This document shows, piece after piece, positions 61,999-63,128 of a stretch of DNA of 64,000 nucleotides. Where the stretch lies: NCBI GenBank assembly GCA_964016885.1, contig OZ024740.1, positions 61,132,001 through 61,196,000 of the forward strand. Direction: 5' to 3'. A model generated the notes under the pieces. That model was given only the letters and a program-made list of their open reading frames with translations. It did not search any database and was not told the origin of the DNA. Source of the DNA: Eledone cirrhosa (Eukaryota). Numbering within the stretch: position 1 is the first letter of the stretch; every line of letters begins with the position of its first letter. A program made the position numbers and the translations under genes.

Positions 61999-62314
61999 TA
62001 TATATAAATGGAAAAAATGAAACGAAATTTCATTCCTCACTCTTAGTACGGCTGTTACTTAAATATAAGTATGTATACAGACGTACAGTATATACATGCA
62101 CACATATATATATGTACGCATATACATATATATATACAGACGTACAGTAGTATGTATATATATATATATACATACATGCACACGCATATACATGTACGCA
62201 TGGATTCACCGAACATTTATTATAATGCTCGGTGTGTTTGTAAACAAACATCCCGAATTAAGCCGTACAGTGTCTAGCAACCATCGTTGCTCATTTGTTC
62301 AACACTGACAATGA

Positions 62315-62357
62315 ACGCTGTACTAGTTTCAAGCTTATTAGCTATCGTCAGCAACGT
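62315..62357 (-). ncRNA. Minimal type I hammerhead ribozyme, family A
   Basis: acgttg-CTGACGA-tagctaataagctt-GAAA-ctag-TA-cagcgt. Confidence 0.9.
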
Positions 62358-62730
62358 ATACCTTCCTGCCAGATGATTGAACGTCTGAAAGTATATACTT
62401 TCCTTATGCATATTAACGGCTGAGCAGCCTAATTTGCATATCGAGTGAGTTAATATGCGTACATATATATATATGTGTGCATGTATGTATATATATATAT
62501 ACATACTACTGTACGTCTGTATACATATATATATGTACGTATACATACTTATATTTAAGTAACAGCCGTACTAAGAGTGAGAAATGAAATTTCGTTTCAT
62601 TTTTTCCGTTTATCGTTTTCCGTACCCCGGCCGATTAACTCACTTGATATGCAAATTAGGCTGCTCAGCCGTTAATATGCATAAGAAAAGTATAAACTTT
62701 CAGACGTTCAATCATCTGGCAGGAAGGTAC

Positions 62731-62773
62731 ATGTTGCTGACGATAGCTAATAAGCTTGAAACTAGTACAGTGT
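62731..62773 (+). ncRNA. Minimal type I hammerhead ribozyme, family A
   Basis: atgttg-CTGACGA-tagctaataagctt-GAAA-ctag-TA-cagtgt; stem I has several G-U pairs. Confidence 0.85.
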
Positions 62774-63029
62774 TCCTTTGTCAGTGTTGAACAAATGAGC
62801 AACGATGGTTGCTAGACACTACGGCTTAATTCGGGATGTTTGTTTACAAACACACCGAGCATTATAATAAATGTTCGGTGAATCCATTCGTACATGTATA
62901 TGTGTGTGCATGTATGTATATATATATACATACTACTGTACGTCTGTATATACATATGTGTGCATGTATGTATATATATATACATACTACTGTACGTCTG
63001 TATACATATATATATGTACGTATACATAC

Positions 63030-63128
63030 TTATATATATATATATATATATATATATATATATATATATATATATATATATATATATATATATATATATA
63101 TATATATATATATATATATATATATATA
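63030..63128. repeat. (TA)n microsatellite
   Basis: Direct reading; similar long tracts at 36056-36108 and 37206-37283. Confidence 0.95.

Follow-up and report, generated by a model that had tools for sequence, protein, structure and literature searches.

The closest described systems are the non-LTR retrozymes of metazoans and the endonuclease-bearing PLEs. With the former, as far as the available text of PMC7229834 goes, the repeat reported here has in common a non-coding tandem unit of a few hundred nucleotides, a low GC content, thousands of copies and one type I hammerhead per unit, with a stem III that consists of a single pair under a palindromic tetraloop as in HHR_Amex1 from axolotl, which cleaves well only as a dimer, and a U-U mismatch below stem II as in HHR_Amex2 (179 of 182 units here). 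Dimer cleavage has also been confirmed for newt-type hammerheads, according to the available part of PMC6155905. Expression, cleavage and circles have been shown for the retrozymes of PMC7229834, whereas the hammerhead of our unit is a predicted one; conversely, two fixed 3′ ends, a tail, head-to-head arms and (TA)n targeting, all present here, are undescribed in the accessible part of that paper, in which PLEs are named only as candidate mobilisers of metazoan retrozymes (Cervera and de la Pena 2020).

In PLEs, head-to-head arms with a tail on one of them are already known (Arkhipova 2013, PMC3846280; Craig 2021, PMC8557442), and the tail has been mapped to two internal start sites of the reverse transcriptase (RT), ribozyme cleavage being dispensable in vitro (Frangieh 2024, PMC11167929). 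What is accessible of these three reports indicates that endonuclease-bearing PLEs are like our copies in 5′ truncation, partial tandems, an inverted 5′-truncated second arm, an optional tail at one end, AT-rich or (TA)n targets, a hammerhead in the terminal repeat and the copying of unprocessed RNA. The unit described here differs in having no RT/GIY-YIG ORF and in consisting of the repeat only, and its tail is non-coding and about 60 nt long as against 30–40 nt. In addition, the start sites are used one per arm here (44 of 48 classed pairs), whereas the pooled in vitro products of Frangieh 2024 showed no strand difference, as given in the available part of PMC11167929.

Non-autonomous Chlamys elements, e.g. 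MRC1, are likewise PLE-dependent and form head-to-tail multicopy insertions, but they have no canonical hammerheads and have 3′ sequence in common with known partners, according to the accessible portion of PMC8557442. The vertebrate retrozymes of Li, Clavereau and Pollet (bioRxiv 10.64898/2026.07.22.740005) correspond to ours in the family concept, with overlapping unit lengths (51–972 bp) and repeat numbers; in the available text, the PLE link of the Xenopus elements is their similarity to PLE terminal repeats (pLTRs), whereas here it is a junction signature, and no pLTR homologue was found among the 110 loci compared. Ribozymes go unmentioned in the available part of PMC13282606, and no earlier description of end pairing or of alternating units in retrozyme arrays was found in the literature covered, most subscription journals and supplements lying outside it. 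The family is novel as a member, and the retrozyme as a type of system is already known.

So far, the enzyme that mobilises animal retrozymes had been proposed on the basis of co-occurrence and, more recently, of similarity to pLTRs; in the present case it is the insertion junctions that bear a PLE signature. Since this is a short element whose young copies number in the tens of thousands, it yields statistics on the poorly understood PLE reaction, namely that start sites are used one per arm, that both arms likely derive from one RNA and that the ribozyme cut is read through, and these copies open two questions to direct testing, namely how the tail and inverted arm of PLEs originate and whether the template is a circle or a multimer.

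The repeat unit and its copies in the window

The natural tandem unit of the repeat, hereafter family A, is 430 nt long at locus L014; some 340 nt of it are unique sequence, and the other 90 nt or so are a (TA)/(TATG) microsatellite. Its 31-nt hammerhead core has 10,046 exact matches in the 3.0-Gb genome against 0 for the reversed control, and a motif closer to the 3′ end of the unit, which is counted twice in multi-unit copies, has 16,518. The copies occur both in tandem and dispersed, with arms of 0.1 to 15 units, and on comparison they fall into subfamilies of their own, including a sister subfamily with a unit of 466 nt that is about 85% alike (38 of 298 aligned bases differ from family A) and whose two marker motifs have 8,640 and 948 genome matches. 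In organisms B and C the matches are weak (share 0.24, 10–12 contigs) and were set aside.

The longest ATG ORF in the doubled natural unit codes for 68 aa, which bears out a first-pass annotation of this DNA in its claim that there is no credible ORF, and no RT/GIY-YIG ORF was found within or joined to the unit. The LTR/PBS/PPT layout of plant retrozymes was not seen in the arrangement of the copies, which lie in tandem or head to head, stop at fixed 3′ sites and contain a hammerhead of the type I fold. More than 10,000 copies, the lack of an ORF, (TA)n at the ends and arms of more than one unit also support the annotation in calling the family a high-copy retrozyme or PLE-dependent non-autonomous element that carries TA repeats and targets them, and we state with high confidence that the repeat is a very high-copy animal non-LTR retrozyme, likely mobilised by a PLE.

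The window, i.e. the whole 64,000-nt stretch analysed (Eledone cirrhosa, contig OZ024740.1, positions 61,132,001–61,196,000), contains the following features of family A, where E1 and E2 are the two 3′ end sites of the unit at positions 419–15 and 51–66, respectively:

1138–1195, plus strand: fragment, unit 299–356, lacking the hammerhead, with a SINE-like element on one side and an RTE-like LINE on the other
5107–5636, plus strand: single-arm copy of an older subfamily with an E1 end; core at 5377–5407
42683–43073, minus strand: E1 arm of the second two-armed insertion; core at 42900–42930
43070–43135, plus strand: E2 arm of the second two-armed insertion, tail only, 66 nt
61985–62004: (TA)n target, left
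62005–62454, minus strand: arm 1 of a two-armed insertion, from unit 87 to the unit end and through the tail to E2, 0.95 unit
62005–62065, minus strand: tail (unit 5–66), predicted hairpin, with the E2 end running into (TA)n
62321–62351, minus strand: core of the type I hammerhead in arm 1; cleavage is predicted after 62321
62450–62460: head-to-head (5′–5′) arm junction, gap 0, E2 with E1
62455–63032, plus strand: arm 2, from unit 339 round the whole unit to E1, 1.2 units plus a duplicated microsatellite block
62548–62613, plus strand: E1 site inside arm 2, together with its tail; at 62613 (E2), the raw-data contigs of run X1 pass into (TA)n
62737–62767, plus strand: core of the type I hammerhead in arm 2, with U-U below stem II and a palindromic stem III; cleavage is predicted after 62767
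62891–63032, plus strand: own (TA)/(TATG) microsatellite block, ending at E1
63033–63129: (TA)n target, right

The four segments and the fragment of the first-pass annotation are present in the window about where it had placed them, and the core that it had called invariant is indeed identical over 31 nt in the four segments, but the fragment (unit 299–356) has no core. The segments that it had listed as separate copies at 62006–62455 and 62460–63035 are really one insertion with two arms (62005–62454 and 62455–63032), and the 66-nt plus-strand arm at 43070–43135, part of the insertion at 42683, had been overlooked. The fragment at 1138–1195 stops at unit 356 and the copy at 5107–5636 starts at unit 364; their subfamily markers match, with the RTE-like LINE lying between them, and the two may perhaps be a single insertion split by that LINE.

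Insertion ends and the pairing of arms

For end mapping, copies were aligned onto a repeated natural unit; the sample was taken from the first 100 core matches on C1, with 79 loci after 6 overlapping ones had been dropped, and segments with less than 78% identity were removed. Among the 126 segments, 54 of the 3′ ends lie at E1, 57 at E2 and 15 elsewhere, i.e. 111 of 126 fall on two fixed sites about 60 nt apart, and the 5′ ends of the same segments are scattered through all ten bins of the unit. The stretch between E1 and E2 forms the tail of about 60 nt, with a predicted hairpin, in which no open frame was found.

The arms exceed one unit in 55 of 126 segments. The first-pass annotation had taken the copy beginning at 62006 for a true circular permutation and predicted dispersed breakpoints and lengths of more than one unit; the 5′ ends and the long arms are as it predicted, but the 3′ ends are not dispersed, and true circular permutation in the form stated is unsupported. 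Because the 3′ ends are fixed and the 5′ ends are scattered, what had looked like circular permutation is 5′ truncation combined with a fixed tail. Nor was there an excess of 5′ ends at the ribozyme cut (4 of 75 at unit 215–227 with about 3 expected, in a set chosen on the 3′ motif), which argues that the cDNA is not run off a cleaved monomer.

At least (TA)3 follows 154 of the 176 classed 3′ ends (across sets), compared with 1,743 of 13,272 background windows (13%), and contigs from a public run break into (TA)n at exactly the mapped E2 base. The contigs of four sequencing runs confirmed the E2 end and the variants and nothing further; contigs cannot separate a circle junction from a genomic tandem. 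The copy lying inside a PLE ORF (L057/L058) is flanked by a 9-nt target duplication. At L332, L431, L415 and L416, younger copies or other elements sit in the microsatellite within older units, and as this microsatellite hosts new insertions, the element supplies its own target.

Many insertions consist of two arms joined 5′ to 5′, often via 1–8 common bases or a short filler. The 62 pairs found among 132 insertions of family A comprise 44 E1+E2, two E1+E1, two E2+E2 and 14 with an unclassed end, which means that the two ends differ in 44 of 48 classed pairs (binomial p 1.5e-9); in the core-selected part of the family, all 27 of 27 pairs are E1+E2, and two of the four same-end pairs are fold-backs at the palindrome at unit 284. 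Several copies that had passed as single, namely L007, L043, L077, L104, L153 and L155, were seen by eye to carry a second arm of 10–90 nt with the other end type, and among the short second arms inspected in this way L083 and L107 seem to be exceptions to the pairing rule.

There are 26 E1+E2 pairs in the sister subfamily (26 of 27 classed) with one same-end and two unclassed, and 10 E1+E2 pairs with one same-end in a third sample, the end classes being lax in both since any end in the microsatellite counts there as E1 if no tail lies within about 500 nt of it. The same-end exceptions in these two sets are arms interrupted inside the microsatellite, in the sister subfamily by a nested copy. 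It is the counts of E1+E2 arm pairing that are the addition to the described PLE architecture.

The internal palindrome at unit 284–303 (window 62830–62850) is a hot spot of 5′ ends and of fold-back junctions (L005, L024, L074, L149). There is also a SINE, which we take to be tRNA-like, that abuts the unit head to head at window 811–1195 and at L124:1164–1689, with the SINE cut at the same 5′ base and the unit at 294–299 in these two independent loci; possibly, SINE RNA served as the second arm, or the contact arose by chance at a truncation hot spot.

Taking the junctions together with the lack of an ORF, the unit is likely mobilised in trans by a PLE, whose reverse transcriptase/GIY-YIG endonuclease would both copy it and insert it, i.e. 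it is a non-LTR retrozyme. The PLE protein would cut both strands of a (TA)n tract, and the free ends would both serve as primers on a single RNA, multi-unit or circular, with reverse transcription starting at E1 from one of them and at E2 from the other. Synthesis would cross the uncut or religated ribozyme site and then stop at random, and the ends of the two cDNAs would be fused, in many cases across a few bases that match.

The hammerhead, the RNA template and the arrays

The predicted fold of the hammerhead is type I, with a six-pair stem I extended beyond an internal loop, a stem II of four pairs upon the U-U mismatch and a stem III of one pair with a palindromic loop. Each of the six stem I pairs is kept paired in 172–180 of 182 units, and the first-pass annotation was correct in that the versions acgatg/catcgt, acgttg/cagcgt and atgttg/cagtgt are all present and paired, but true covariation is seen at one pair only (187:223, with U-G in 125, A-U in 30 and G-U in 16 of 182 units), and atgttg/cagtgt differs by two C-to-T changes that give wobbles. 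The covariation represents a few subfamily events, not many. Between the two subfamilies, the 31-nt core is altered at the free position 7 and in loop II and nowhere else. A variant class of cores, with another first pair in stem I, was considered and rejected, as the pattern gave 16 decayed ordinary copies.

Since Rfam gives no match for the hammerhead at gathering level, the call rests on motif and pairing. A single hammerhead folds no better than shuffles (z −1.7 to +0.1), the whole unit without the microsatellite folds well (z −5.4), and the core is broken in 12 of 70 units of a set not selected on the core. For the stem III palindrome, a self-duplex of −6.8 kcal/mol is predicted, and by analogy with the hammerheads in the accessible part of PMC7229834 the ribozyme would cleave as a dimer via this palindrome. 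The monomers would circularise, now and then seeding new homogeneous arrays. At L159:1419–2236, nine rare changes are common to both arms, including C-G in place of U-U and a broken stem III palindrome, and a template whose ribozyme is likely weak was nonetheless copied there.

At 43 polymorphic sites, the arms of one insertion mismatch in 140 of 1,406 cases (10.0%) and tandem units in 164 of 1,719 (9.5%), compared with 38.9% between insertions. The rare variants in common per kb are 1.9 for in-register arms, 0.8 for off-register arms, 2.5 for tandem units and 0.05 between insertions, and any such variant is found in 8 of 42 in-register, one of 29 off-register and 9 of 56 tandem insertions. 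The young sister copies L252, L254, L258, L259, L264, L265, L268 and L271 have a private haplotype in both arms, and a palindrome-keeping variant of stem III occurs five times in the genome, four of them in both arms of one insertion. Because the arms usually share insertion-specific variants, a single RNA likely templates both, although later gene conversion could also account for the sharing. A fixed register between the arms was rejected, as offsets of 0, 1 and 2 units all occur.

Arm length reaches 7.5 units in family A, as against 15 in the sister subfamily, with arrays of up to 15+4 units. Copies running through the cut site and repeating up to 15 times require a multimeric or circular template, in agreement with what the first-pass annotation had proposed. 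Three private changes at L253 are fixed in every unit covering them, which calls for a step from one unit to many, and at L271 ten units of one haplotype are spread over both arms. At L267, the order of variant units in the long arm is repeated by the short arm, and subfamilies are mixed inside one arm at L101 and L064, which calls for a template of several different units; the source array of the L267 order was not found, its marker occurring 38 times in the genome and that spacing in L267 only.

The monomer-to-multimer step needed at L253 and L271 is what pure rolling circle would provide, every insertion being copied from a monomer circle and the copies being circular permutations. This reading would also suit the arms of 7.5 and 15 near-identical units, the good fold of the unit (z −5.4 without the microsatellite) and the circles shown for other animal retrozymes in the available part of PMC7229834, but with the 3′ ends fixed, and with the ordered variants of L267 and the mixed subfamilies of L101 and L064 not given by a single monomer circle, we regard it as rather unlikely. 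For the PLE-mobilised retrozyme that we prefer, it is likely that circle and multimer routes both operate.

A further arrangement, in which a dimer of the enzyme would prime both broken ends of the target on one RNA, each start site being served by its own subunit, and in which this RNA would in many cases be a circle of two units made by the dimer-dependent hammerhead, giving variants in every second unit, is put forward as tentative and unlikely to hold in full. Even spacing was found in 20 of 27 subset variant patterns from 10 arms of at least four units (10.4 expected, p 0.0002 at the pattern level), in a sample partly picked on rare variants and with the contiguous block of L269 omitted by majority rule, and the sharing of variants between neighbours is depleted (2 arms, 6.1 expected, p 0.004). 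Strict ABABA arrays are seen at L061 and L304, and a fresh sample added one at L416; only two arms of the fresh sample have subset patterns, one even and one a nested mixture. The spacing-2 test at the arm level is not significant (7 of 10, 5.0 expected, p 0.15), and over all 34 arms units at distance 2 are no closer than neighbours (p 0.59). The every-second-unit pattern can also be explained by unequal crossover of two-unit blocks or by assembly error.

Candidate partners and neighbouring elements

The genome is rich in PLEs, with 10,595 GIY-YIG candidates. A PLE with a unit-like terminal repeat was found at none of 30 Neptune-type loci, 30 loci of the neighbouring hammerhead family and 50 GIY-YIG loci, save for separate nearby insertions, these 110 loci being a small part of the 10,595 candidates, and no recurrent ORF-bearing 5′ flank was found among 71 flanks, in which the sequences in common are other repeats. 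As no partner PLE was found, we infer the PLE dependence from junction anatomy and not from shared sequence. Three candidate partners were rejected. A Neptune-type PLE that precedes the L016 array on its upstream side possesses a terminal repeat of its own, with the unit downstream in one of 30 copies; the GIY-YIG PLE at L057/L058 contains the nested copy with the 9-nt duplication; and a PLE on the upstream side of the L403 array stops 2 kb short of it with its own repeat.

The copies might be merely 5′-truncated pLTRs of an ordinary autonomous PLE, with no self-propagating family, given that their architecture matches PLE ends and that Xenopus retrozymes derive from pLTRs, according to the available part of bioRxiv 10.64898/2026.07.22.740005. 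However, in arms of up to 15 units it is another unit, and never an ORF, that lies upstream of the unit, the unit has its own subfamilies and its tail is without an open frame, unlike that of the autonomous PLE in the window; this origin is very unlikely, and it is refuted largely by the long ORF-free arrays.

A dispersed satellite or other DNA-level repeat (Helitron-like, or produced by recombination and fold-back repair in TA tracts) with the hammerhead as a passenger, to which the local DNA duplications at L017–L023 and L158, the fold-back junctions at the internal palindrome and the array block and period-2 patterns compatible with unequal crossover could point, is highly improbable in view of the fixed 3′ and scattered 5′ ends, the E1+E2 pairing, the 9-nt target duplication of the copy in the PLE ORF and the core conserved between subfamilies.

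The window itself contains an autonomous-type PLE at 43153–47775, coding for RT and a GIY-YIG-like domain and frameshifted, with an inverted second arm of 1.2 kb, (TA)n at both ends and a 59-nt tail on one end which continues its ORF; its build is that of the two-armed insertions of family A. It has a minimal hammerhead-like motif near 47584, and there is an open relative of 1,217 aa at L148:26–3679. The region 47823–48222 is a fold-back terminal-repeat copy of another PLE family, whose ORF-bearing copies L403 and L412 end in (TA)n, and a further PLE at 5670–8428 is represented by a GIY-YIG-like 3′ fragment, which has an extended 3′ region as well as a minus-strand hammerhead-like motif at 5755.

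A second non-coding family with a type I hammerhead lies at 63120–63841, with a U3-A8 swap, a core from 63634 and a palindromic stem III; it is fold-back two-armed, one end bearing a tail of about 35 nt, and is placed in the same (TA)n tract as the insertion at 62005–63032. The neighbouring repeats presumably resemble cephalopod ones. Outside the window, L058:78–420 is an abundant hammerhead-like repeat (2,340 candidates) with U-U below stem II and two-armed copies, and several PLE families, which we take to be of the Neptune-type clade, are found at L393–L410; the hammerheads in their terminal repeats are canonical or of the U3-A8 form and have a palindromic stem III, and some of these families have ORFs of 840–1,100 aa.
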